DNA from: Promethearchaeota archaeon
Lineage (GTDB): Archaea > Asgardarchaeota > Thorarchaeia > Thorarchaeales > Thorarchaeaceae
Reading direction: 5' to 3'
Assembly (NCBI GenBank): GCA_027031765.1
Contig: JALVPN010000117.1
Coordinates: 1-12,594, forward strand
DNA length: 12,594 nucleotides
This document shows positions 1 to 12,594 of the stretch, in pieces. The notes beneath the pieces are model-generated. The model did no database searches, was not told where the DNA came from, and was given only the letters and a program-made list of their open reading frames with translations. Made by a program: the position numbers and the translations under genes. Each line of letters begins with the position of its first letter. The first letter of the stretch is position 1.

Positions 1-2216
1 CGCTTGTATATGTACCGGGCCCATGAGGACATGCTCGGCATCTCCTCTGGCATGCCCTTGCGGCGCCGGATCTCAAGGATGACCTGCTCCTGTAGTGCAG
101 CAGGCAGGGGCTCGAAACCCCTGAACTCGTAACCGAAGAAACTCCGCCCGGCGCTTGCGCTCCTGAACTCGTCGGCTATGCCGATGGTCTCGGCTGTGGG
201 CAGGGTGCCCTTTATTGTGACCGAGTCCTCCTCGGCCTCCATTGCCACAATCTGTCCACGGTGCGCCGTCAACACCTTGATCACTGCGCCTTGGGTGTCA
301 GGTGGTGTCTTGATGTCGACGTTCAGGACGGGCTCGTAGAGGGCTGGCCCGCCTGTCAGGAACGACATGTTCAGGCCAGAGCTGACCATTGTGGCCACCT
401 CGTTGAACCCGGTATGGGCCGGGTCGGTGTGGACGGTGGCATCGGTCAGTACGACCTTCACTGCCATCACGGGCTCGTGTGCAATTGGTCCTGCATTGAC
501 GAACTCCCTGAACGTCGACTTCACATAGGCTGATATCCTGTCGAACCGCTGTACGCCGGTCATCGCGTCCACGAGGATGCAGTTCTCATATATGTCGAGG
601 ATCTTGCGGGCCTCTTTCGCGTCCCAACCAGCCTCGCGCCTGAGGATTTCCGCGCGCTCACGTGCAGGCTGGTCGATGGTGACCTTCTTCTTCCTGATGA
701 GCTCCACGGTCTTGTCGTCAAGGGGTTCAAGGTACATCTTTATCCTGTTGTGTCCGTTTGGCGACTTTGTGTGGAACTCTTGGCCGTGCTCCGTCATGCG
801 TTCGCGGTAGACGATGATTGGCTCAGAGACCTTGATTGGTACTTGCTCGTTGATGCGTTTCGTGAGTATCTCGATCTGGAGCGGGTCGATACCATCGAGG
901 CGGTACTCGCCAGACTCCTTGTCATGCACGAACCGGGCCGTCGGGTCTGCCATTATCCATTTGCGTACGACCTCGCCGAGCTTGCCGATGTCCTGTGGGT
1001 CCACAGGCTTGATGCTCCTGCTCACGACAGGCTCGCTGACGTACTCGATGGCCTCGAAACCCGGCATGTCTGATGACGGGTCAACAAAGGACTCGCCTGA
1101 CGGACACAGGAACCCGAAGATGGACATCAGGTTACCCGCGGGTATCTTGTCCATCGGGAGGATGTCTGTGATCTCCTGCACGCCGAGGCGTTTCACACGT
1201 GCGTTCTGTTTCATGTTGATAAGCCGGATCTCCTGACCGGACTCAAGCGTCCCTGAGAACACGCGCCCAATCAGAGTGGGCCGTTTGCTCTTCGGGTCAA
1301 CGTAGATCTTCGTGATCATGCCGAGGAGCGGGCCGTCCGGGTCGCACTTGAGGAGTGCACGTCCCTCCGGGCTGTCAAGGTCGCCCCTCCATATCCTCGG
1401 TATCTTGTACTTCTGTGCCTCCCGTGGGTTCGGCAGGTGGTGGACAATCATCTCAAGCAACGCGTCGTCCAGTGGCAGGTTCTCCCGCAGCCACTTCTCG
1501 TCGCCCTCTGCGTACTTCTCAAACACAACGATGGGCTTGATGCCTTTCTTCTCAAGGGTGCGCATTGTGAATGCCCAGCCGGTCTTTGCACTGCCAATGG
1601 CGACAGTGCCATGTTCAAACCCGACCTGCCACTTCTTCTTGAACTCTGGTGGTGCCACCTTGCGGATCAACTCGTTGACCTTGGCCACAATGAGGTCGAT
1701 GCGTTCGTACACCTTCTTGGGTGGCAACTTCAGTTCCTGTATCAGCCGGTCGACCTTGTTGACGAAGAGGATTGGTCTGCAGGCCTCCGCTCCCACTGCG
1801 AGCCGGATGTTGGTCTCGGTCTGGGTCATCACCCCCTCAAGGGCGTCCACCAGGATGACGACCCCGTCACTTGCTCTGAGTGCCCGTGAGACCTCACCTG
1901 TAAAGGAGAGGTGTCCGGGGGTGTCGTTCAGCTGGACCAGGTACTCCTCACCGTCGACCTCGAAGTTGAGCAGCACGACCGATGTGAAGATTGTAATCCC
2001 TCGTTCCTGCTCCTCCTCATCGCTGTCGGTCATCAGGGCCTGTCCGGCCGCCGCGTCGCTCATCAGCCCTGCCCTGCGCATGAGGTAGTCGGTCGTCGTC
2101 GTCTTGCCATGGTCGATATGCGCACTGATGGAAACAATTCTCTTGTGCTCATAGTCATCTGACAGTATGAGTCTCCTGATTGCGTCGGGGTCCTTGATCT
2201 TGACCACTTTTTTCAC
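1..2216 (-). CDS. fusA: Elongation factor 2 family GTPase, divergent paralog (aEF-2p-like); 3' end truncated by window edge
   Basis: Manual minus-strand translation from GTG at 2216 (in-frame TAG just upstream at 2220-2222); no stop seen down to position 1. It reads MKKVVKIKDPDAIRRLILSDDYEHKRIVSISAHIDHGKTT (G1), EQERGITI (G2), DTPGHLSF (G3), FVNKVD (G4), GSAKTGW (G5), domain IV loop HTDPAHTG and the C-terminal FRSASAGRSFF...RRRKGM. About 738 codons lie in the window. The ORF track omits it because the stop is outside. Confidence 0.95.
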   Translation of the reverse strand, partial: MKKVVKIKDPDAIRRLILSDDYEHKRIVSISAHIDHGKTTTTDYLMRRAGLMSDAAAGQALMTDSDEEEQERGITIFTSVVLLNFEVDGEEYLVQLNDTPGHLSFTGEVSRALRASDGVVILVDALEGVMTQTETNIRLAVGAEACRPILFVNKVDRLIQELKLPPKKVYERIDLIVAKVNELIRKVAPPEFKKKWQVGFEHGTVAIGSAKTGWAFTMRTLEKKGIKPIVVFEKYAEGDEKWLRENLPLDDALLEMIVHHLPNPREAQKYKIPRIWRGDLDSPEGRALLKCDPDGPLLGMITKIYVDPKSKRPTLIGRVFSGTLESGQEIRLINMKQNARVKRLGVQEITDILPMDKIPAGNLMSIFGFLCPSGESFVDPSSDMPGFEAIEYVSEPVVSRSIKPVDPQDIGKLGEVVRKWIMADPTARFVHDKESGEYRLDGIDPLQIEILTKRINEQVPIKVSEPIIVYRERMTEHGQEFHTKSPNGHNRIKMYLEPLDDKTVELIRKKKVTIDQPARERAEILRREAGWDAKEARKILDIYENCILVDAMTGVQRFDRISAYVKSTFREFVNAGPIAHEPVMAVKVVLTDATVHTDPAHTGFNEVATMVSSGLNMSFLTGGPALYEPVLNVDIKTPPDTQGAVIKVLTAHRGQIVAMEAEEDSVTIKGTLPTAETIGIADEFRSASAGRSFFGYEFRGFEPLPAALQEQVILEIRRRKGMPEEMPSMSSWARYIYK

Positions 2217-2275
2217 TCTCTAGTTTCCTGTCCCCAGTTGTGGCACTTGACACGAGAGAACTCGGTGGGGGGGTC

Positions 2276-2299
2276 GCCACCAGTCCTGTCGCCGGTGGC
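2276..2299 (-). other. Stem-loop at predicted 5' end of EF-2 paralog mRNA
   Basis: Minus strand GCCACCGG-CGACAGGA-CUGGUGGC forms an 8-bp stem (one G-U) with an 8-nt loop. Confidence 0.55.
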
Positions 2300-2321
2300 T
2301 TTGGCGACCACCATGACGATG

Positions 2322-2336
2322 TTTAAAAGAATTTCG
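2322..2336 (-). promoter_or_regulatory. BRE-TATA promoter of the EF-2 paralog
   Basis: The minus strand reads CGAAAT-TC-TTTTAAAC, a purine-rich BRE followed by an archaeal TATA box. Standard spacing puts the TSS near 2299, about 83 nt upstream of the GTG. Confidence 0.7.
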
Positions 2337-2461
2337 TAATGGGGCCTGGGTACTGCTGGGGTCTGCAGGTGCTCATGACGATTGCACTGGGCCGACCCGG
2401 AGTCGTGGACACTCTCTCAGCGGTACCGTGCCCTCCCCCAGCAGTGCCGTACTACCGTCGG

Positions 2462-3241
2462 CTACTTCTCGGCCACGACGACCATTCGTTGCGAGTCGGC
2501 TGAGTACGGTGTCCTCGGGAGCTTGTTCTGCCCGTAGAGCTCCACCTTGTTGAACCCTGTGTCTGCAAGGAGCTCGCGGATCTCGTGTGCTGTGTACATC
2601 CTGATGTTGTTGTTCATCATCGCGTCCTCGTTCATCACAACAATGCGTGCGTTCTCAACATCGATGAAGGTCGCAGGTCTGCCCCTGAGAATGCCGGACG
2701 CGGCATCCAGGACATGTGCCTCGTTCAGCAGGTAGCCCCCTGCAACCTTGGTCCAGGTCTTGTGGAACCGTGGTAGGTTGTACGGGTTCATCAGGTCGAG
2801 CAGCAGTCGTCCACCAGCTCTCAGTGCATTGTATGCGCCCCGGAGCACAGCCATGTTCCCCTCATGGTCAAAGAAACCGAAGCTGTGGCTCAGGATCACC
2901 GCTGCATGGAACCTCTCATGGTAGTCCATCTCCCGCATGTCCCCGGTGTAGAAGTCCACTTCCACTCCCTCTTCCTGTGCACGCTGCATCCCAGCCCTCA
3001 CCAAGCTCTCTGCAAGGTCGAATGCGGTGGCCTTCAGCCCCGCCTTTGCGAACTCTATGCTGTGCACACCGGCACCGCAGGCAATGTCGAGGACCTCTCG
3101 GCCCGGTTCGAGACCAAGTGTGTCGATACAGAACTCCACGACCATGCGGTCGTACTGTTCAATCCCGGGGATGGAGTTGCGGTGCTTTATCCTGAACAGC
3201 TCGGCCCAGAACTCGTCCCAGCCAAGGGCAACTCTCTGCAT
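2462..3241 (-). CDS. Class I SAM-dependent methyltransferase
   Basis: 259 aa. Motif I VLDIACGAGVHS, acidic end of strand 2 (AFDLA), GDMR, and post-II LRAGGRLLLD. The substrate cannot be inferred. Confidence 0.9.
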   Translation of the reverse strand: MQRVALGWDEFWAELFRIKHRNSIPGIEQYDRMVVEFCIDTLGLEPGREVLDIACGAGVHSIEFAKAGLKATAFDLAESLVRAGMQRAQEEGVEVDFYTGDMREMDYHERFHAAVILSHSFGFFDHEGNMAVLRGAYNALRAGGRLLLDLMNPYNLPRFHKTWTKVAGGYLLNEAHVLDAASGILRGRPATFIDVENARIVVMNEDAMMNNNIRMYTAHEIRELLADTGFNKVELYGQNKLPRTPYSADSQRMVVVAEK

Positions 3242-3389
3242 GGCACTGTCCTCTCGTGCGCAACGATATGAAGCTTGTCATTATGTGTCCCGCCACTCCC
3301 ACCCGGCAGGTGTACGACCTAATCCCCCACCAAGACGTACTCGCATGCTCACTGGGCCACGCAGCCGTACCGGAAACGCAGAACGGGGT

Positions 3390-3487
3390 GGAGACGCTCT
3401 GACACCCTGTTGTTGAGATCTCCGCCGGGAGGTTTGGACTTCAACAGGAAACTCAGAGTGATGAGCATGACCAGTGCGAGCGTCTCC
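3390..3487 (-). ncRNA. Candidate ~98-nt structured non-coding RNA (unassigned family)
   Basis: A perfect 10-bp terminal inverted repeat (3390-3399/3478-3487) encloses further stems (3406-3412/3442-3448; 3418-3423/3428-3433). A minus-strand TTTATA box at 3517-3512 begins 30 nt upstream of G3487. Confidence 0.45.
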
Positions 3488-3509
3488 GGACTAATCATGT
3501 TCGGCCACG

Positions 3510-3525
3510 CCTATAAATGTATAGG
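3510..3525. promoter_or_regulatory. TATA box embedded in palindrome CCTATA-aatg-TATAGG
   Basis: 6-bp inverted repeat with a 4-nt spacer. It contains TATAAA (+) / TTTATA (-) in an AT-rich patch of the MTase-aspS divergent intergenic region. Confidence 0.55.
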
Positions 3526-3710
3526 TCATATGGTAAACAGTGAAGTCTCATGAAAAATCGTTAGTCCCGGTGGTGGTCGTGGCCCGGTCACTGTCATGGC
3601 ACGGTATCCATGCTCCTCGATGCGCCACCGTTCTCGTCCTCTCCACGGTGTCTGGGCCACAAGTCTCATAACCATGATGCCAATCGGCTCGGCAAGTGAG
3701 GCAGCGCAAG

Positions 3711-5069
3711 ATGGACTTCTATGAGAGGGCTGGTGTTGAGCCCATCGATGACGCACCGAGGACACACTACACCTCAGAGATTGTCCCAGCACTCACCGGC
3801 GCCGAGGTCGAGTTGATGGGCTGGGTGCACATACTCCGTGACAAGGGCCGCATCAAGTTCCTGGTCCTCAGGGACGAGCGGGGCACAGTGCAGGTCACCA
3901 TCCCGAAGAAGCGCGTCCCGGAGGAAGTGTTCGAGGTCTCCGGCACACTGCGTCCCGAGACCGTGGTCGCAGTCCATGGCACGGTCGTTGAGGCGCCCCA
4001 GGTCGAGCGTGGTGTCGAGGTGATACCGTCACGGCTACGGGTCCTGAACCGGTCGGAACCACTGCCCATCGATGTGGTGGAGGGCAAGGCCGGCATCGAC
4101 CTTGACACACGTCTCAACCACCGTATCCTCGACCTCAGGAAGCCGCGGGTGAACGCAGTCTTCAGGGTACAGCACTGTCTCGTCCGGTTCGCCCGCGAGT
4201 ACCTTGAGGAGAATGGTTTCGTCGAGGTCCACACACCCAAGATTGTTGCCGAGGCCACGGAGGGTGGCGCGAACCTCTTTGAGATAAAGTACTTTGAGCG
4301 CAAGGCGTTCCTGGCACAGAGCCCGCAGTTCTACAAGCAGCTCATGCTGCTCGCTGGCTTTGGACGTGTCTTTGAGGTGGCGCCGGTCTTCAGGGCCGAG
4401 AAACACAACACACGCCGTCATATCAATGAGTATACCTCCTTCGACCTGGAGATGGCATGGATACGTGGTGTGGAGGACGTGATGGCCATCGAGGAGGAGA
4501 TGCTGTGCCATGCGTTCTCCAAGACCCGTGAACATGCTGCTGCTGAGCTGGAGCTCCTCGGCGTGGAGCTTGTGACCCCCAGAATACCCTTCCCACGGGT
4601 CAAGTACGCAGGGGTCATTGACATGCTCGCCTCCGAGGGCAAGGAGCTTGAGCTGACCGACGACCTCGACCCTGAGGCTGAACGCATGCTGGCAGAACTG
4701 TTCCCGGAGCGCTTTGGCACCGATATGGTCTTCATAACCCACTACCCACTTGAGCTGCGTCCTGCCTACACGATGCCCAGCATGACCGACGAGGGCATGA
4801 CCGAGAGCTTCGACCTCACTTACAAGGGCATGGAGATCACCACTGGCGGACAGAGGATTCACCTGTACGACCTGCTCGTTGAACGGTTCCGTGCGAAGGG
4901 CTTCAACCCCGATGACTTTGCGTTCTACCTCGACCCGTTCAGGTACGGTGCTCCCCCACACGGTGGTCTGGGCCTTGGTGTCGAGAGGCTGACAATGCAG
5001 GTGCTTGGCATAGAGAACATCCGCGAGGCCACACTCCTGCCACGTGACCGCGACCGGCTGACGCCGTAG
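3711..5069 (+). CDS. aspS: Aspartyl-tRNA synthetase, archaeal type
   Basis: OB-fold N-terminus (RTHY...GWVHILRDKGRIKF), motif 1 (FVEVHTPKI), AQSPQFYKQ, motif 2 FRAEKHNTRRHINE, GGQRIH, motif 3 PPHGGLGLGVER and the C-terminal PRDRDRLTP. ATG 3711 is preferred over GTG 3696 because GTGAGG upstream looks like an RBS. Confidence 0.96.
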   Translation: MDFYERAGVEPIDDAPRTHYTSEIVPALTGAEVELMGWVHILRDKGRIKFLVLRDERGTVQVTIPKKRVPEEVFEVSGTLRPETVVAVHGTVVEAPQVERGVEVIPSRLRVLNRSEPLPIDVVEGKAGIDLDTRLNHRILDLRKPRVNAVFRVQHCLVRFAREYLEENGFVEVHTPKIVAEATEGGANLFEIKYFERKAFLAQSPQFYKQLMLLAGFGRVFEVAPVFRAEKHNTRRHINEYTSFDLEMAWIRGVEDVMAIEEEMLCHAFSKTREHAAAELELLGVELVTPRIPFPRVKYAGVIDMLASEGKELELTDDLDPEAERMLAELFPERFGTDMVFITHYPLELRPAYTMPSMTDEGMTESFDLTYKGMEITTGGQRIHLYDLLVERFRAKGFNPDDFAFYLDPFRYGAPPHGGLGLGVERLTMQVLGIENIREATLLPRDRDRLTP

Positions 5070-5094
5070 TCCGACACCTGTCCACGCCGCACCA

Positions 5095-5113
5095 GTAATA
5101 CTCTGTCTTAAAG
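5095..5113 (+). promoter_or_regulatory. Putative promoter of Vps22/36 gene (GTAATAC motif + TTAAAG TATA)
   Basis: AT-rich patch gtaatactctgtcttaaag in the short gap after aspS. Confidence 0.45.
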
Positions 5114-5176
5114 CACGTTGCTGGGTCACACTCCATGTCAAGAGTTGGTACTACTGGTACGAAGGGAGCCCGACCG

Positions 5177-5914
5177 ATGCGCGAGAGAGCCGAGTCTGAG
5201 CTGTACGCATGTATCGCGACACTCGACCAGCTGAAGAAGATGTACGACATGGGTGCAGTAGATATCACATCCTTCCGTCAGGAGTCGGCCGGCCTGATAT
5301 CTGAGGTCCGGGGCCAGATTGAGGAGATGCGCCGCCTCGGCCTGGACCCTGATGGCTTCCTAATTGCGCAGCGCATCCCTGAACGGTTCCCTGATGCTGC
5401 CTCACTCCTCGAACTCGGCAGCCCGGCCACCCAGCCGCTCGCAGGGCTCACACGGGAACAGTACCTCGACTACATCGGCCTCGCCGTACTAGACGTGGTG
5501 ACCGCGAATTCGTCCAAGGGCATCATGGGCCTCGCAGAACTCATAGTCGAGGTGGTACGCAGAATCCCGCAGTCATCCCCAGTGAGCTACAGCGACGTGA
5601 TTGAGGCCGTGGACATGGTGGCTGCACACGGCCTGATCCCTGGTATCCGGACTCTGAAGGGTGGTGTCAAGGTTGTCGAGCTCCGCCCCCTCGAACTGCG
5701 TGGTGACCAAGCTGAAGTGATAAACCTCGCAGCGTCAAAGGGGTACGTGACCATCGAAGAGGTGATGATGGAGTTGCGCTGGAGCCGCGACCATGCGGTC
5801 CAGGTCCTGGGGAGTCTGGTGGACGATGGGATGGCGGTGCTCGACAGCTCGTACTCGGCAGGGAAGCGCTACTGGTTCCCCGGCCTCCGGACACGTGACA
5901 GCAACGCCTCCTGA
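5177..5914 (+). CDS. ESCRT-II Vps22/Vps36 (EAP30) winged-helix protein with N-terminal Vps28-N-like hairpin
   Basis: The C-terminal ~150 aa match the Vps22/Snf8 tandem WH pattern (YLDYIGLAVLDV...GIMGLAEL...VSYSDVIEAV...PLELRGDQAEVINLAASKGYVTIEEVMMELRWSRDHAVQVLGSLVDDGMAVLD...YWFPGL). The N-terminal ~80 aa resemble Vps28-N. Start is ATG 5177 (GAAGGGAG RBS) or ATG 5135. Confidence 0.88.
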   Translation: MRERAESELYACIATLDQLKKMYDMGAVDITSFRQESAGLISEVRGQIEEMRRLGLDPDGFLIAQRIPERFPDAASLLELGSPATQPLAGLTREQYLDYIGLAVLDVVTANSSKGIMGLAELIVEVVRRIPQSSPVSYSDVIEAVDMVAAHGLIPGIRTLKGGVKVVELRPLELRGDQAEVINLAASKGYVTIEEVMMELRWSRDHAVQVLGSLVDDGMAVLDSSYSAGKRYWFPGLRTRDSNAS

Positions 5915-6098
5915 AGAGAAGAGGGCGGGACTTGGCGCCCGTAGAAACAGTGGTGGTACCCTCTCCCTGTGGTGGGGGTAAGACACGGTATGCCCTACAT
6001 CAACTAACACGGTGATGCGGACTCGTTACCTATGTCCTGTGCGTACCGTTGCCTACTCTGCCCCCTCTCGTGACGTCTCCCCTCCCCCGGGCCTCTCC

Positions 6099-6812
6099 TC
6101 AGACCCTGAGCAGCACCGTCCCCCTGTCCTCGTCAATCCACTGTGCCACCCCGCGTTCCACAAGACGGCCGAGTGCTGTCCGCAGCTCGTCCTCTGGGAG
6201 CGTCGAGAAGGCCTCGGTCGTTTCCCGGATCACAAGCGACCTGACATCAAGTCGTCTGTGACCCGTCCTCAGTGCCCAGTCGTATATGACATCTGACCAC
6301 TCGTCCGGGTCCCTCCAGAAGACCCGGAGGACACGTCCCTCCTCCCCCCTCCACTCTGCAAGCCCACGTTCTACGAGCCTGTCACCAATCGTCTGGAACG
6401 CGTCCATGCGCTGTTGTATCTGAGTGAAGGGCGAGTATGTCAGGAACGTCATGAGGGAGACCGTGTGCAGTCTGGCATGTGCAGTCCATTCGAGGAGGTA
6501 CTCCGCCCACTCGTCAGCCCACAACCGGCGGTCCTGTTCGTCCTGCGGCACAATGTACATCCAGCCTGCCTGTTCACGTGCCCCCCACTTTGGCTGGGGT
6601 GCAGTCGGTGGTGCCAGCGTCCCCTCGGCCGGGGTCAGTCCCACTGCCGACACCATGCCCCCGCCCTGACGCACCTGTCCGTCCACCACCCCTGATATTT
6701 GGCCCTCAGTGCTGGTCGCAGCTGTGGTGCTGTCCACGGCCGGCGGGGTGTCGTGAGAGACCTGTGGTGGTGCGCCCCTACCCTTCCTGCGGACGCGTTC
6801 CGCCATGCCCAC
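6099..6812 (-). CDS. vps25: ESCRT-II Vps25 homolog with ~75-aa low-complexity N-terminal extension
   Basis: Contains WADEWAEYLLEW, LAEWRG, VFWRDPDEWSDVIYDWALRTG (Vps25 signature I/V-W-R-x-P-E-E-W...IYxW) and FSTLPEDELRTAL. It starts 3 nt after the vps4 stop (GTG 6812 or ATG 6806), so the two form an operon. Confidence 0.88.
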   Translation of the reverse strand: MGMAERVRRKGRGAPPQVSHDTPPAVDSTTAATSTEGQISGVVDGQVRQGGGMVSAVGLTPAEGTLAPPTAPQPKWGAREQAGWMYIVPQDEQDRRLWADEWAEYLLEWTAHARLHTVSLMTFLTYSPFTQIQQRMDAFQTIGDRLVERGLAEWRGEEGRVLRVFWRDPDEWSDVIYDWALRTGHRRLDVRSLVIRETTEAFSTLPEDELRTALGRLVERGVAQWIDEDRGTVLLRV

Positions 6813-6815
6813 GGC

Positions 6816-8045
6816 CTATGACCCCTCCGCCCACTCTATGTAGCGCTGCATAACCCGCGGGTCGGTGGACGGGGACACCATGGTCAGTGCCCGCAGGAAG
6901 TCTCCCATTGTGACAGGCCTAAGTCCCGGTGCACCCCCTTCACTGGACCCCTTGTCACGGAGCACTTCTCTCACGGCCTCCATTGCAGCCTCCCGACACA
7001 CGGTGCTTATGTCCCGGCCACTATACCCCTCGGTCATGCCTGCAAGGTACTCGTAGTCCACATCTGGGGCGACATCGACGCCGGTCATGTGCACCCTGAA
7101 TATCTCGGCGCGTGCCCCTTTATCTGGCAGCGGCACGTGGATCCGCTTTTCAAAACGTGAGCACAGGGCGAAGTCAAGTTCCCAGGGCAGGTTGGTGGCG
7201 GCGATGACCGTGACCCTGTCGTCCTCACCCTCACGGAGTCCCTGCATCTCTGTGAGCAGCTGTGTTTTCAGGCGCCGCTCCCCGCCCACATCGTCTGCCG
7301 AACGCGCCGTGCCAAGGGCGTCGAGCTCGTCAATGAATATGACCGAGGGCTGCAACTCCCTGGCCCTCCGGAACAGCTCGTGGACAAGCCTCTCAGACTC
7401 GCCCAGCCACTTGCTCACGATATTGGCTGCTGACACGTTGAAGAACGTGGCACTCACCTCCGCGGCCACCGCGCGTGCAACAAGGGTCTTTCCACAGCCC
7501 GCGGGACCGTACAGTAGGACTCCCCTCCAGGGCCTCCGTGCCCTTGCTGCAAACAGCTCGGGCCGGGTCATCGGCGCAATGACGGCCTCCTCGATTGTCT
7601 GCTTCACATCGTCCAGGCCGACCACGTCACTCATCCGCGTGTCTGGTCGCTCGACGACAATCGTTGCGTCAACCATCTGTCGGACACGCTGCACGTCCTG
7701 GTCGCTCTCCGTCGGATAGGCCTCTGTCTGCTCGTCGCTGTCCGCAGGGGTCACCGTGTGGGGGCCGTGGGCGTCGTGTGTTGGCGGGTGCCGGGTGTGG
7801 GCCGTGGTGGGCCCGCCGGGACCGCACAGCTCTCTCACACGGTCAACACATTCCTGTGCACGGAGCATGTAGTGTCTTCTGAGCGACGGCAGTGTGGCCG
7901 AGCGTGACAGGTGCAAGAGGACCCTGCTCGCCTCGAGATATCGTCGTGCTGCCTCACGGCTCTGTCCGCTCCTGTCGAGGCCTACTGCTGTTTCCAGCAG
8001 ACGCCTGAGCCCCATGTCAACCCTGTCCATATGTGCTCCGGACAT
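6816..8045 (-). CDS. vps4: Vps4-like MIT-AAA+ ATPase
   Basis: N-terminal MIT three-helix pattern (AVGLDRSGQSREAARRYLEASRVL...YMLRAQE), Walker A GPAGCGKT, pore loop SKWLGES, Walker B IFIDELD, sensor 1 AATNLPW, GYSGRDI, and the C-terminal helix PSTDPRVMQRYIEW. There is no beta-domain insert. It neighbours ESCRT-II and ESCRT-III genes. Alternative start ATG 8030. Confidence 0.93.
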   Translation of the reverse strand: MSGAHMDRVDMGLRRLLETAVGLDRSGQSREAARRYLEASRVLLHLSRSATLPSLRRHYMLRAQECVDRVRELCGPGGPTTAHTRHPPTHDAHGPHTVTPADSDEQTEAYPTESDQDVQRVRQMVDATIVVERPDTRMSDVVGLDDVKQTIEEAVIAPMTRPELFAARARRPWRGVLLYGPAGCGKTLVARAVAAEVSATFFNVSAANIVSKWLGESERLVHELFRRARELQPSVIFIDELDALGTARSADDVGGERRLKTQLLTEMQGLREGEDDRVTVIAATNLPWELDFALCSRFEKRIHVPLPDKGARAEIFRVHMTGVDVAPDVDYEYLAGMTEGYSGRDISTVCREAAMEAVREVLRDKGSSEGGAPGLRPVTMGDFLRALTMVSPSTDPRVMQRYIEWAEGS

Positions 8046-8295
8046 GCTCCGTCGGCCCCATCTCTGCCACTTGAATATGAATATGGGACTATGCTCTTGG
8101 TATTACGTCTGTCCGCCCGTATGCCTGACATCGGTGGTCCTTCCTGCGCCCGTCGGCACACCGGGCCCGCCCACAGGTCGCGGCTGCCCGTCAGTTGGTA
8201 TACCCACCGCCTGTGTTCCTCTACAGGTATTACTACGTTTTTAGACTGATTACCGGTGCACAGGAATGGAGCTCGCTCCATATGTGGTGGACCAC
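8046..8295. promoter_or_regulatory. Divergent promoter region between vps4 and ESCRT-III
   Basis: AT-rich patches: tandem GAATAT x2 (8073-8084), TTTTTAGA (8238-8245), GGTATTAC at 8099-8106 and 8226-8233, and palindrome GGTATACC at 8197-8204. Confidence 0.55.
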
Positions 8296-8904
8296 ATGGG
8301 CGCCGCTAAGAAAGCATGGTCATGGGCGTGGAACAATGTGGATGTTAGCAGACTGCGTGTCGACCTGAAGGTGCTAGTACGGCAGCTCGAACGTGAACGT
8401 GTAAGGCTGGAACGTGAGGAGCGGGCGGCCCGTGAGAGAGCTGCCAGGGCCCATGAGAGTGGGAAATCCGATGTGTTCCGCTTCTACGCGACGGAAGCCG
8501 TCCGGTTCAGGCGCCTCGCCATTTCTGTGGACCGCTCGCGCCTGCAAATGCTCAAGGTCCTCGCTCTGGTGTCCCGTACACAGACGACGGCTAGGACATC
8601 AGTCGCAATGCAGGAGGTCGCCAGGACACTTGAGGTCCTTGAGAAGGAGGTCGACAGCAAGAGGACACTGCAGAACGCTGACGAGATTGCCCGCAGGCTT
8701 GAGGGGCTTGAGATTACAAGCGAGCTCTCGGCTTCTGCCCTCGACTCGGGCGTCGCGGAGGTCTCACCAGAGGAAGTTGCAGCCATGATGCGTGAGATTG
8801 CCAGCGAGCAGACGCATGACACACCAGCGAGGGGGGGCTTGCTGACAGAGGCCGAGGCACTTGAGGCCGACATACGCTCGCTGGAGCGTCAACTCGGTCT
8901 TTGA
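8296..8904 (+). CDS. ESCRT-III subunit, Vps2/24/46 (CHMP1/2/3-like) class
   Basis: Charged helical hairpin LKVLVRQLERERVRLEREERAARERAARAHESGKSDVFRFYATEAVRFRR...TQTTARTSVAMQEVARTL matches the CHMP1/Did2 pattern. It has an acidic C-terminal half, helix 5 SPEEVAAMMREIASE, and a Leu-rich MIM1-like tail. ATG 8296 follows GTGGTGG; alternative start ATG 8266. Confidence 0.9.
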   Translation: MGAAKKAWSWAWNNVDVSRLRVDLKVLVRQLERERVRLEREERAARERAARAHESGKSDVFRFYATEAVRFRRLAISVDRSRLQMLKVLALVSRTQTTARTSVAMQEVARTLEVLEKEVDSKRTLQNADEIARRLEGLEITSELSASALDSGVAEVSPEEVAAMMREIASEQTHDTPARGGLLTEAEALEADIRSLERQLGL

Positions 8905-9067
8905 GACTGGTGCACGGCCGTCCTCAGCTATGCGTGACACGGCAGACGGGGGCAATTGCGGTACAGTAGTCAATGACGGCTGCTGGTCAGGTCAGTAACG
9001 GCTGCTACTGTTCATCCGCTCCGGACCGCGCTTGGCGGACAGGTCGCAGCAGGGCCATTTCCCGGCC

Positions 9068-10789
9068 CTACCAGACCGGATAGCCCTGGCCTGCGGTCAG
9101 CCTCTCAATCTCTATGCTGGTCATATACGCGTCGCGCACGAGTTCTCTATACCTGCGTATGAAGTCCTCTGGGGCCAACCGCCCATCGCGCATCATCCTT
9201 ACTGTGCGTCTTATCTCTTCGTCAATGACTGCCGCCTGCTGTTTCAGGCGTTGGAGCCCCGCCACTTGTTGCGGTTGATATGAGTCACTGTACGTACTGC
9301 TACTCGTCGGGGGCCGTCCGAGTCCCGGATGGCCCGTTGTGGGCGTGCCTGCGGATGGCGGCCGCTGGACGTTGGGTGCAGTCTGATGGGGCTGGCCTGT
9401 CTGGACTGGGGATGGTGCTGGTATGTCCGTTGTGCTGTGTGGTATGGCCCAGTAGCTGCTGGTGCCATGGTCATGTTGGGGTGTTACAGCATGGCTGTAC
9501 CACTGGGGCGCAGCCCGTGCGGTCGGGGCCGGGTACCACCCCGTCGCTGCTGGCCCCCTCATGGACTGGGATGGCCGCACTGTAGCACTTGTGTCATGTC
9601 CTTGCGTCCTCGACGAGAGTACCATGTGGATGAGCGACTCGATCTTGAGGCGCACATCACTTACACTGGTGTCTGTCTGTTGCAGTCGCCTGACACGCTG
9701 CATGTCCGTCTGCATGTGCCTGTTGAATGTCCGGGCAACCTCCACGTACTGTGGCAGTACACTCTTTGTCTGCGGGTTGCACGAGAACCGCAGGTCTCCC
9801 TGGCGCATCTTGAAGACCAGTCTGTCCTGTCGCTTCGTGTCCGGCTCGATGTTCGAGAGATACGAGAGTGGAAAGTCGAAGACCACGTCTGTCCTTTTCC
9901 GCATGCGTCCTGTCTCTGCAATGAACACCATGCGCACGTCCGTGATGAAGAGGGTCCCTCTGGCCTTGTCGTTCTTCAGGAAGTCGCTCCCGGCCAGTGC
10001 GATGTCCGGAAATGCACACACGGGGTGCTCATTGACCCTGAACTCGGTGTAGTCCCTGAAGGGCCTGAACTGTTTCCTGTAGAACGCCACTCCGTCGAGC
10101 TGCGCCTTGAGGTCTGCGACAGTGAGCATGAGGCCTTGGAGGGCCTCGTCAACGCGCTCCCTGTAGTCGTTGCTCAGCTGTACCAGTCTATGCACCACGC
10201 CCCTAACGAACGAGAACTGCTCCGGTGCCCATCTAGTATAGTCAATCAGCCCGCGTGTTTCGGCCACCATCTGGCGCGCCACAATCTCGGCCTGGTTCGC
10301 AATCCTGCGCTTGACTGCTGGCAGCTCCGCATGGAGTCCCTCGACCTTGGCCTCGAGCCAGTTGTAGTGTAGGAAGTCCGCCATCCTGAGTGAAACGAGC
10401 AGCTGTTTTGCCTCCTCAAGGCGGTTGCGGAACTCCCTGAGTCGCATGTGACCATACCTTATGCCCATCACGGCGCGTTTCATCTCGGCAGCCAAGTTGC
10501 GCCGCGTCACATCAATGAGCACTGTCCTTACAGAGTGGCACTTGGGGCACCTGTCTGTAGTGCGCCGTCCGCGGGCCAGGTCTTTGGAGCCGCAATTGGT
10601 ACACTGGGTGGTGCTCTCTCCCGGCAGGGGGGTGCCCAGGTCTGTGTGACACTCCCTGCACACCCAGTACTCCCTTGTGACCGCTTCAAGGCATTCCGGA
10701 CATAGGACGGCCCCGCAGTCTTCACACAGGTGTGTGGCCCTTCGCGTACCGCAGACCTCACATGTGACTGCAGATGCATCTCCTCTCAA
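9068..10789 (-). CDS. Multidomain protein: Cys-rich Zn fingers + coiled coil + GRAM/PH-like domain + Pro/Ser/Thr-rich linker + C-terminal steadiness-box-like hairpin (putative ESCRT-I-like adaptor)
   Basis: Six CxxC pairs (10538-10762), a heptad-rich helical region (~10070-10507), ARGTLFITDVRMVFIA...FDFPLSYLSNIE (GRAM/PH-like, ~9722-10042), a low-complexity linker (~9266-9607), and MMRDGRLAPEDFIRRYRELVRDAY (~9095-9265). TTG 10789 is preferred as start because GGAGG lies 7 nt upstream; the ORF is open to 10969 (ATG 10924). Confidence 0.8.
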   Translation of the reverse strand: MRGDASAVTCEVCGTRRATHLCEDCGAVLCPECLEAVTREYWVCRECHTDLGTPLPGESTTQCTNCGSKDLARGRRTTDRCPKCHSVRTVLIDVTRRNLAAEMKRAVMGIRYGHMRLREFRNRLEEAKQLLVSLRMADFLHYNWLEAKVEGLHAELPAVKRRIANQAEIVARQMVAETRGLIDYTRWAPEQFSFVRGVVHRLVQLSNDYRERVDEALQGLMLTVADLKAQLDGVAFYRKQFRPFRDYTEFRVNEHPVCAFPDIALAGSDFLKNDKARGTLFITDVRMVFIAETGRMRKRTDVVFDFPLSYLSNIEPDTKRQDRLVFKMRQGDLRFSCNPQTKSVLPQYVEVARTFNRHMQTDMQRVRRLQQTDTSVSDVRLKIESLIHMVLSSRTQGHDTSATVRPSQSMRGPAATGWYPAPTARAAPQWYSHAVTPQHDHGTSSYWAIPHSTTDIPAPSPVQTGQPHQTAPNVQRPPSAGTPTTGHPGLGRPPTSSSTYSDSYQPQQVAGLQRLKQQAAVIDEEIRRTVRMMRDGRLAPEDFIRRYRELVRDAYMTSIEIERLTAGQGYPVW

Positions 10790-11088
10790 CTGGGGGCCTC
10801 CGGATGTCCTGCCTCCCTGTCTGTGACGGCAGTCAAGAATAACCCGTGTATTATTGCTGGAATACCGACCGGGCAGAGCCCCCTGTCTAGGCGTGCCTGC
10901 ACCGGGCGGCTGGGCCCCGGACATGGTTCGGCGGGGACGTCTACTGAGGGCCCAGGCCTTGGCGCCCACTTTTCACAACCACGGTCCTGCCGCCCGCTGT
11001 TGGTACTGTCCCCGGTATTATCTTGGAGGTGTGTTTGGCCACATAGATACATCTATGAACCCGTTGCTGCACGGCCAGTGTGATTGAT
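10790..11088. promoter_or_regulatory. Divergent promoter region between the Zn-finger/PH protein and tldD
   Basis: AT-rich patches at ~10835-10856 and ~11015-11060, each beginning with or containing GTATTAT. Confidence 0.4.
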
Positions 11089-12474
11089 ATGGAGGACTTG
11101 GCGGACGCCGCAATTCAGGCGGCACTGGATGCGGGAGCCACCTTCGCCGATGTCAGAATTGAAGACACGATGACCACAGTCCTTGAGATCAGCGACGGTG
11201 TGACACGGCGCTCCACAATATCCCATCTCAAGGGTGCGGGCATCCGCGCGCTTGTAGACGGTGCGTGGGGGTTCATCCAGAACACGGACCTGAGCCCCGA
11301 GGGGATGCGCGAGGCCGGGAGGTCTGTAGCAAAGATGGCCCTGGCCACCAGCTCGCGGGTGGAGGCGCGGTTTGACATCGATGCGCCCGTCTTCACTGGC
11401 AAGGTGACGATGCGTGTCAGGCGGCCCTTCGTGGATGTGCCCATTGAGGAGAAGGTCGAGTTTACAAAGATGATTGACGACCAGGCGCGCCAGTTCGACG
11501 AGCGCATTGTCAATACCCGTACGGTATATGGCGAGATGTGGACACGGCTGTTCGTCGCAAACTCGCTCGGTACACGTGTCTGGATGGAGAACTCACTCCC
11601 GAGGATCATGTCAATTGTCACCGCAAAGGACGGTGGCACCCGTCAGCGTGCCTTCCGTTCTGTGGGCACCCGCGGTGGGTTCGAGACCATGAGGACCGAG
11701 GAGGCCCAGCACATAGGTGAGGCCTCGGCACGCCTTGCAGTCGACCTCCTGTCGTCGGTGGCTGCAAAGGGTGGCATATACGACGTTGTCATGGACCCGG
11801 TACTCAACGGCGTGATGGTCCACGAGGCCTTCGGTCATGCCACCGAGGCTGACAACTGGCCCGCCCATGCCACTGTGCTCGAGGACAAGGTGGGCGAACA
11901 GGTGGGCCCCGAACACCTCAACATAAGCGACGACCCCACTCTGCCGGGCGAACGCGGCTCCTTCGAGTATGACTGGGAGGGCACAAAGACCCGGAAGCGC
12001 CGGCTCGTGACAGCAGGTGTCCTGACGGAACTCCTCCACAGCCTTGAGACCGCCTCGAGGCTCGGCATGGAGCCCAACGGTGCTGCCCGGGCGCAGAGCT
12101 TCATGTACCCGCCCATCCCACGGATGAGTAACACGTTCATGGAACCGGGTGACTGGAAGGTGGAGGAGATAGTCGAGGACACAAAGCACGGCATCATGCT
12201 GTGCAGTTTCAACTATGGCTACACTGAGCCGGCCAAAGGGCAGTTCATGTTCCAGGCACGTTATGGCTACCTCATTGAGGACGGCGAGGTCGGCCAGATG
12301 GTGCGCGACGTGTCACTGGCAGGTCAGATACTGGATGTCCTGTCAAAGATTGACGCTGTTGCGGACGACTTCCAGATGGAGGCCGGCACATGTGGGAAGA
12401 ATGGCCAGGGCGTCCCGGACATGAGTGGTGGCCCCCACGCACGGATCAGGGCAGTCCCTGTAGGAGGTATGTAG
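11089..12474 (+). CDS. tldD: TldD family metalloprotease
   Basis: GATFADVRIE N-terminus, zinc motif HEAFGHATEAD (HExxxH), GSFEYDWEG, PRMSNTFM, and the C-terminal CGKNGQ...SGGPH. Start is ATG 11089 (or GTG 11080). Confidence 0.94.
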   Translation: MEDLADAAIQAALDAGATFADVRIEDTMTTVLEISDGVTRRSTISHLKGAGIRALVDGAWGFIQNTDLSPEGMREAGRSVAKMALATSSRVEARFDIDAPVFTGKVTMRVRRPFVDVPIEEKVEFTKMIDDQARQFDERIVNTRTVYGEMWTRLFVANSLGTRVWMENSLPRIMSIVTAKDGGTRQRAFRSVGTRGGFETMRTEEAQHIGEASARLAVDLLSSVAAKGGIYDVVMDPVLNGVMVHEAFGHATEADNWPAHATVLEDKVGEQVGPEHLNISDDPTLPGERGSFEYDWEGTKTRKRRLVTAGVLTELLHSLETASRLGMEPNGAARAQSFMYPPIPRMSNTFMEPGDWKVEEIVEDTKHGIMLCSFNYGYTEPAKGQFMFQARYGYLIEDGEVGQMVRDVSLAGQILDVLSKIDAVADDFQMEAGTCGKNGQGVPDMSGGPHARIRAVPVGGM

Positions 12475-12477
12475 GCA

Positions 12478-12594
12478 ATGAGCAGTCAACTACTTGAGAC
12501 CGGCGAGCAGGCGGTCGAGGCCGCGCTGCGCCTCGGTGCTGACCAGGCCGAGGCATACGTGTCGCGGACGCGTTCGTTCGCAATAGATGTGGAG
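12478..12594 (+). CDS. pmbA: PmbA/TldE family protein, 5' fragment (runs off right edge)
   Basis: ATG 3 nt after the tldD stop, with AGGAGGT RBS at 12462-12468. It reads MSSQLLETGEQAVEAALRLGADQAEAYVSRTRSFAIDVE, which carries the GADQAEAY N-terminal PmbA/TldD pattern. tldD-tldE pairing is typical. Confidence 0.82.
   Translation, partial: MSSQLLETGEQAVEAALRLGADQAEAYVSRTRSFAIDVE

Follow-up and report, generated by a model that had tools for sequence, protein, structure and literature searches.

A Znr_CC_PH_SB-type protein in a Thorarchaeial ESCRT locus, with a predicted link from its steadiness box to Vps22

Main

[quoted passage not shown] A locus that raises the question of how such proteins might be joined lies on contig JALVPN010000117.1 of a Promethearchaeota archaeon of the family Thorarchaeaceae (assembly GCA_027031765.1), of which positions 1 to 12,594 form the window analyzed here. 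Next to the gene of a Snf7/ESCRT-III protein it encodes, on the reverse strand at 9068-10789, a protein of 573 amino acids that a preliminary description, made from the sequence alone, took for an adaptor built from zinc fingers, a coiled coil, a PH domain, a Pro-rich linker and a steadiness-box-like tail. What is this protein, and through which partner could it act?

The architecture and its interpretation are not new, contrary to what the preliminary description implied: both were published in 2024 under the name Znr_CC_PH_SB or Znr_PH_CC_SB (asCOG cog.011556; Makarova et al. 2024, mBio 15:e00335-24, PMC10936438). The family is described there as a likely ESCRT-I component, restricted to Asgard archaea, encoded with ESCRT genes and probably present in the ancestor of Asgardarchaeota; from the analogy with Vps36, its PH domain is expected there to associate with membranes (PMC10936438). 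Its parts, namely three zinc ribbons, the helical region called 'CC', a PH domain and a steadiness box at the C-terminus, are all found here, as are the Asgard restriction and the ESCRT neighbors, and we see no difference in kind. We therefore consider it highly probable that the open reading frame is the Thorarchaeial ortholog of Znr_CC_PH_SB, an ESCRT-I-like adaptor working by the mechanism proposed in the Discussion. The published description names no partner for the steadiness box, and what we add is a predicted one: the Vps28-like N-terminus of Vps22.

Results

The TTG start codon at 10789 coincides with the start of approximately 25 full-length homologs in the alignment, and a Shine-Dalgarno-like GGAGG can be read from the sequence 7 nt upstream of it (10797-10801, reverse strand). 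A longer frame from a GTG at 10969 was rejected, given that the homologs give no support upstream of the TTG. The called protein P0002 has the same 573 amino acids, followed by a stop codon, and the two peptides on which the preliminary description relied are both present in the translation of 9068-10969 (reverse strand), namely AAVIDEEIRRTVRMMRDGRLAPEDFIRRYRELVRDAYMTSIEIERL in the tail and the GRAM/GLUE-type strand GTLFITDVRMVF in the PH region. More than 130 homologs are found at E below 1e-118, with a mean column identity of 53%; given this number and conservation, the features of the open reading frame are, as judged from the alignment, far beyond chance. In a full-length AlphaFold2 model built on 37 homologs, with a mean predicted local distance difference test score (pLDDT) of 79.8, the order of domains is a zinc module, three helices, a PH domain, short helices, a disordered linker and a helical hairpin. 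P(T/S)AP, PPxY and PxxP motifs are absent from the whole protein, linker included.

The PH domain comprises residues 256-353 (9731-10024, reverse strand; 9722-10042 in the preliminary description) and has seven strands and a C-terminal helix, with no inserted finger; modeled alone, the region of residues 242-397 reaches a pLDDT of 87.7. Searching PDB sequences with a profile of the region produced nothing but a chance match to CymR (E 0.14), hence a fold search was needed to place the domain. In Foldseek against the PDB, the PH-GRAM domain of MTMR2 (4.8e-5) and the PH-like domain of Lam6 (9.3e-5) are both near the top, and the GLUE domain of EAP45/Vps36 follows at 6.8e-4 to 1.3e-3 (2hth_B 6.8e-4, 2cay 8e-4). 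VIA, which is independent of Foldseek, ranks the GLUE structures below the same two GRAM domains, with Z 12.5 for MTMR2 (root-mean-square deviation (rmsd) 2.8 A over 105 residues), 11.3 for Lam6 and 10.4 for EAP45 GLUE (2dx5_A), and gives Z 9-11 for many other PH domains. The strand GTLyiTNkRl is typical of GRAM domains, but the identity to MTMR2 and Lam6/Ltc1 is 17-18% at most, and the protein has neither the phosphatase domain nor the StART domain of these best structural matches. At the sequence level, the GRAM profile (PF02893) stays below its cut-off (E 0.05, 13.9 bits versus 23.6), and among the 37 family members the sub-threshold Pfam matches are bPH_3 in 33, GRAM in 27, PH-GRAM_MTMR6 in 14 and Vps36_ESCRT-II in 13. 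The domain is thus GRAM-like by fold without qualifying as GRAM by sequence, and the earlier label of a 'GRAM/GLUE-type PH fold' is a fair description, with the Pfam cut-off of neither family reached.

Two to three short helices follow the PH domain in the model (residues 355-391; 9617-9727, reverse strand) and carry the conserved motifs QTDMQRVRK and DVRLKIE. As a separate observation, an Atlas search with the whole protein returned at rank 4 a bacterial cluster (Chloroflexota, 572 amino acids, 71 members, score 0.83), in which Pfam GRAM is found in 68% and Vps36_ESCRT-II in 51%. This hints at bacterial GLUE-like PH proteins of similar size and is a lead only.

The zinc module (residues 10-85; 10535-10762, reverse strand; pLDDT above 90) contains six CxxC pairs, C10/13, C22/25, C30/33, C44/47, C63/66 and C81/84, each of which is missing from no more than one of the homologs covering the position. 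By their number, the six pairs would suffice for three zinc sites, which bears out the zinc fingers of the preliminary description. Of the six, the first four resemble a B-box or DZR, and the remaining two make up a zinc ribbon. Searched as an isolated segment, residues 1-95 match Pfam DZR above the cut-off (E 3.3e-8, 34 bits) and zf-B_box at E 3.3e-5 (24.4 bits), and there are weak matches of the module to RING, B-box and zf-UBP profiles. Membership of the FYVE family was not found: the Pfam profile gives E 0.53 and 10.9 bits versus a cut-off of 27.8, and where the basic pocket motif R(R/K)HHCR would be expected, the sequence is ATHLCEDCG. Hence, of the proposed mosaic of ESCRT-0, ESCRT-I and ESCRT-II, the FYVE-type ESCRT-0 component is not supported, and DZR and B-box fit better.

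The region published as 'CC' (10070-10516, reverse strand) consists of three long helices, residues 92-136, 143-177 and 189-240, modeled with pLDDT mostly above 90 and rich in invariant residues. The loops between them are only 6 and 11 residues long, so that the model favors an intramolecular antiparallel bundle over a stalk of the Vps23/ESCRT-I type, a packing that we infer from loop lengths. The region has no Pfam match, and an Atlas feature search with residues 92-250 gave no usable match. The coiled coil of the preliminary description is therefore right as to a long helical region; a Vps23-like stalk leading into the steadiness box is not supported, given that the helices precede the PH domain.

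A PH domain and zinc fingers in one protein, with a PH fold of the GRAM-like class, are also what Vps36/EAP45 offers, and the protein could be a detached Vps36-like subunit of ESCRT-II, the PH domain and zinc fingers of which would recognize cargo or a modifier resembling ubiquitin, and not lipid, with the zinc module acting like the NZF fingers of yeast Vps36. The GLUE structures among the best fold matches, the Vps36_ESCRT-II matches in 13 of the 37 members, the weak resemblance of the zinc module to RING, B-box and zf-UBP and the Vps22 of the window, in which Pfam finds no PH domain of its own, all fit this possibility. However, the protein lacks the winged-helix EAP30 core, which lies on a separate gene (5135-5914), its zinc fingers lie at the N-terminus and do not interrupt the PH domain, which is continuous, and the lipid-binding PH domains of the GRAM type match better than GLUE. 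The ubiquitin partner also appears to be absent from the host: in its 2.95-Mb genome, which is 95% complete so that absences are likely and short of proven, no UEV domain was found at E up to 1 and ubiquitin gave no match, and Thorarchaeota have been reported to lack ubiquitin (Hatano et al. 2022, PMC9192718). We judge a Vps36-like subunit to be unlikely. The same genome contains no second PH paralog, no second domain like the Vps28 N-terminus and no free-standing Vps28, Vps28 occurring only as the N-terminus of Vps22; Vps23_core occurs only in the tail of the protein described here.

This tail is a steadiness-box helical hairpin of residues 506-534 and 540-566 (9092-9274, reverse strand; 9095-9265 in the preliminary description), modeled with pLDDT 93-98. 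When a profile of 37 homolog tails (A2) was searched against the PDB, the best three matches were yeast Vps23 chains (2p22_A 7.9e-4, 2f66_A 9.4e-4 and 2caz_A 2.7e-3), the alignments of which span the whole hairpin, the best E being significant though weak; human TSG101 (6vme_B) scored E 0.16, and 2p22_A also ranks first for the whole-protein profile. In Pfam, this tail matches Mod_r at E 0.0099 and Vps23_core at E 0.018 (15.5 bits versus a cut-off of 26.8), and neither CdvA nor SHOCT is among its matches at E up to 10. Across the family, sub-threshold matches are most often to Vps23_core (19 of 37 tails), with Mod_r in 12, GvpG in 4 and a SHOCT-like family in 1, and for members of three other families of the phylum the tail likewise matches Vps23_core at E of approximately 0.01. 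The steadiness-box-like tail of the preliminary description is thereby upheld.

The hairpin is preceded by a disordered linker (residues 396-505; 9275-9604, reverse strand; pLDDT below 50), which confirms the P/S/T-rich linker described before: its 110 residues include 18 P, 15 T, 14 S and 12 A. According to the alignment gaps it is approximately 50 residues longer than in most relatives; two linker insertions were found in this genome alone. Like Vps23/TSG101, the protein thus ends in a steadiness-box hairpin, and its predicted pairing (below) is with a domain of the Vps28 N-terminal type as in the ESCRT-I head. It differs in that it has no UEV domain in Pfam, in that the 110-residue disordered segment rather than a stalk helix leads into the steadiness box, and in its zinc module and PH domain, which are absent from Vps23. 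The last residue, Trp 573 (9071-9073, reverse strand), is also last in most of the 37 aligned homologs and follows a poorly conserved stretch of 6-8 residues, a pattern in which it may be a putative terminal docking motif.

In eukaryotic ESCRT-I cores the Vps23 chains matched by the tail are found in the same crystal entries as Vps28 chains, and it is these that the N-terminus of the Vps22-like protein of the window matches. A profile of this N-terminus (A5) has as its best four PDB matches the N-terminal chains of yeast Vps28 from the ESCRT-I core (E 0.036-0.07), which places a Vps28-N-like steadiness-box domain at residues 1-88 (5177-5440, forward strand). This agrees with published work, in which the N-terminus of Thorarchaeota Vps22 matches the VPS28 N-terminal domain PF03997 at 99% in HHpred (PMC10936438 Table S3) and Asgard Vps22 is described as fused to a steadiness box (PMC10936438).

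A complex prediction for the tail and the Vps22 N-terminus, both given as alignments, reached an ipSAE of 0.82, 0.82 and 0.81 in three runs, versus 0.01 for the best of three controls, with a partner pLDDT of at least 81 and contact agreement between runs of at least 97%. Among solved complexes, 58 of 80 reach the mark of the tool, as do 2 of 110 mismatched pairs; these numbers apply only roughly here because our own alignments were used. On the tail side, the predicted interface comprises residues 530-559, including the conserved R534, G536, E541, F543, Y547 and R552, and so covers the most conserved tail residues of the family; on the Vps22 side it comprises residues 3-40, including the conserved E8, A11, A14, T15, Q18, L19, E36 and L40. 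The prediction supports binding of the tail to the Vps22 N-terminus, and makes this domain the candidate partner of the steadiness box. Yeast two-hybrid work on Loki- and Thorarchaeota reports that a steadiness-box protein of the freestanding kind, which may or may not be Znr_CC_PH_SB, possibly binds Vps28 (PMC9192718).

By Pfam assignment, the window is an Asgard ESCRT locus of the Thorarchaeota type. Besides the Znr_CC_PH_SB-type gene it contains, on the forward strand, a class II Asp/Asn-tRNA synthetase (3696-5069), the Vps22-like EAP30 protein (5135/5177-5914), the Snf7/ESCRT-III protein (8266-8904; Pfam Snf7 2.9e-12) and PmbA/TldD (11080-12474), and, on the reverse strand, EF-2 (3-2216), a methyltransferase (2462-3241), a Vps25-like ESCRT-II protein (6099-6812; Pfam ESCRT-II 3e-12) and Vps4 (6816-8045; AAA, MIT and Vps4_C domains). 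In three further loci on long contigs (L005, L006 and L007), which encode homologs with 39-43% identity, the gene again adjoins Snf7, and Vps4, Vps25, Vps22 and the Asp-tRNA synthetase are close by. The preliminary description had made its reading depend on whether the hairpin resembles a steadiness box and whether homologs are linked to ESCRT genes, and both are found.

Two further observations concern these neighbors. A PmbA/TldD metallopeptidase pair is kept opposite Snf7 in all three of these loci, with one copy visible in the window; either a functional link or no more than inherited gene order may lie behind this. According to published work, the N-termini of some Asgard Vps25 proteins are steadiness-box-like; the Vps25 of the window has no such signal in Pfam, and its N-terminal 95 residues (6528-6812, reverse strand) have zero matches at E up to 10.

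In the phylum, the family profile has matches in 298 of 400 genomes, including 82 of 85 in the own family and 128 of 135 in another large family, in which the open reading frames have approximately 700 amino acids, comparable to the published 650-amino-acid Lokiarchaeum member (PMC10936438 Table S2). In one large family, many genomes have two profile matches, and in two of those listed, G163 and G255, both lie within a single long open reading frame. The order of parts is unchanged in members from three other families, and the homolog source names are nearly all Thorarchaeota, with a few labeled Promethearchaeota, Sifarchaeia or Lokiarchaeota. The profile is almost absent from three families (1 of 31, 1 of 12 and 0 of 22 genomes). 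Hermod-, Hod- and Wukongarchaeia lack ESCRT systems (PMC10936438), and our guess, in line with the counts, is that these are the near-empty families.

Discussion

The mechanism that we consider most likely for this Znr_CC_PH_SB protein starts at the membrane or at a cargo or landmark, to which the PH domain, whose basic loops are conserved (K275, R286, R297 and K322), would be bound, possibly together with the zinc module. Through the flexible linker, the hairpin at the C-terminus would then be free to dock on the Vps28-like hairpin domain that is fused to Vps22 at its N-terminus. The ESCRT-I-like head that does the targeting would in this way be coupled directly to ESCRT-II (Vps22-Vps25), which would in turn nucleate ESCRT-III (Snf7) for remodeling by Vps4. 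Recruitment of this kind would be independent of ubiquitin, given that ubiquitin, UEV and a free-standing Vps28 were undetected in the genome. A role in providing Vps22, which has no GLUE-like membrane module of its own, with such a module is also plausible and matches the published inference (PMC10936438). What the preliminary description observed is confirmed and what it made of the observations is partly supported.

Several points weigh against this account. The assignment to cog.011556 was made by architecture and description rather than by direct alignment to the listed members. The sequence matches to Vps23_core, Mod_r, GRAM and Vps36 GLUE are all under the curated cut-offs of Pfam, and a two-helix hairpin is too simple for specific fold searches. 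Binding of lipid, cargo and partner is, across the family, a matter of prediction only, and the pass of the tail and Vps22, a prediction and no measurement, may partly reflect likeness to solved ESCRT-I cores. In addition, the tail profile matches, at E 5.6e-5, an unrelated GvpG-like open reading frame of 115 amino acids in the same genome (L004:1432-1779, reverse strand, on contig C143 of G000; Pfam GvpG 3.3e-7). Its neighbors are not ESCRT genes, and its hairpin turn, KRAGTIGPDEFERRYRELQDEL, hardly differs from that of the steadiness box in our protein. Because it shares the turn motif G-x-I/L-x-P-E/D-D/E-F-x-RRYREL, this motif is not specific to steadiness boxes, which suggests a short motif, or possibly an origin, common to hairpins of the steadiness-box, GvpG and SHOCT types. 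As a third steadiness-box subunit, this second match was rejected, being a small GvpG-like protein in a non-ESCRT context.

These observations could be taken further, to the reading that the C-terminal hairpin is a generic helix-turn-helix like those of GvpG or SHOCT, on a zinc-finger and PH protein that is unrelated to ESCRT and has its neighborhood by accident. The GvpG-like match, the GvpG and SHOCT-like hits in four tails and one tail, and steadiness-box matches that all stay under curated cut-offs are what such a reading would lead one to expect. However, the three best PDB matches are Vps23 chains, Vps23_core and Mod_r (19 and 12 tails) are far commoner than GvpG, the place beside Snf7, Vps4, Vps25 and Vps22 is kept in distant relatives, and the predicted docking on the Vps28-like domain stands well apart from its best control (0.82 versus 0.01). 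A generic hairpin is hence quite improbable. That the helices and PH domain instead form a DH-PH-like tandem, making the protein a guanine-nucleotide exchange factor for Asgard small GTPases, is scarcely credible: Foldseek with the full-length model does list Dbs, Asef, Vav1 and Trio (E 1.8e-4 to 3e-3 over approximately 330-350 columns), but at an rmsd of 17-25 A and low template modeling scores of 0.15-0.37, on which grounds the resemblance was rejected; only 'helices then PH domain' is common to both, the three helices are not a DH fold, no Pfam RhoGEF signal is seen and the PH domain alone explains the matches.

For the Znr_CC_PH_SB-type adaptor, a functional parallel may be CdvA, the recruiter of ESCRT-III to the membrane in Thermoproteota, with which it presumably shares the role of bringing ESCRT to membranes. 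The helical hairpin of CdvA resembles the steadiness box by HHpred, and a zinc ribbon at the N-terminus, together with a coiled coil, is found in some CdvA-like proteins (PMC10936438). CdvA differs in having a PRC-barrel rather than a PH domain and in binding the winged helix of CdvB directly.

Znr_CC_PH_SB is the only ESCRT-linked protein of Thorarchaeia with an evident membrane-reading domain, and is hence a natural candidate for telling ESCRT-III where to act without ubiquitin. For the partner of its steadiness box, the present analysis offers a specific and testable prediction, the Vps28-like N-terminus of Vps22. More tentatively, and as a possibility to which we give somewhat less than even chances, in Thorarchaeia without ubiquitin the direct docking of this tail on the Vps28-like domain would create a minimal two-component 'head' that hard-wires a PH and zinc reader of lipids or landmarks to ESCRT-II by a ubiquitin-independent route, and it may show what the connection between ESCRT-I and ESCRT-II looked like before the two separated in eukaryotes.

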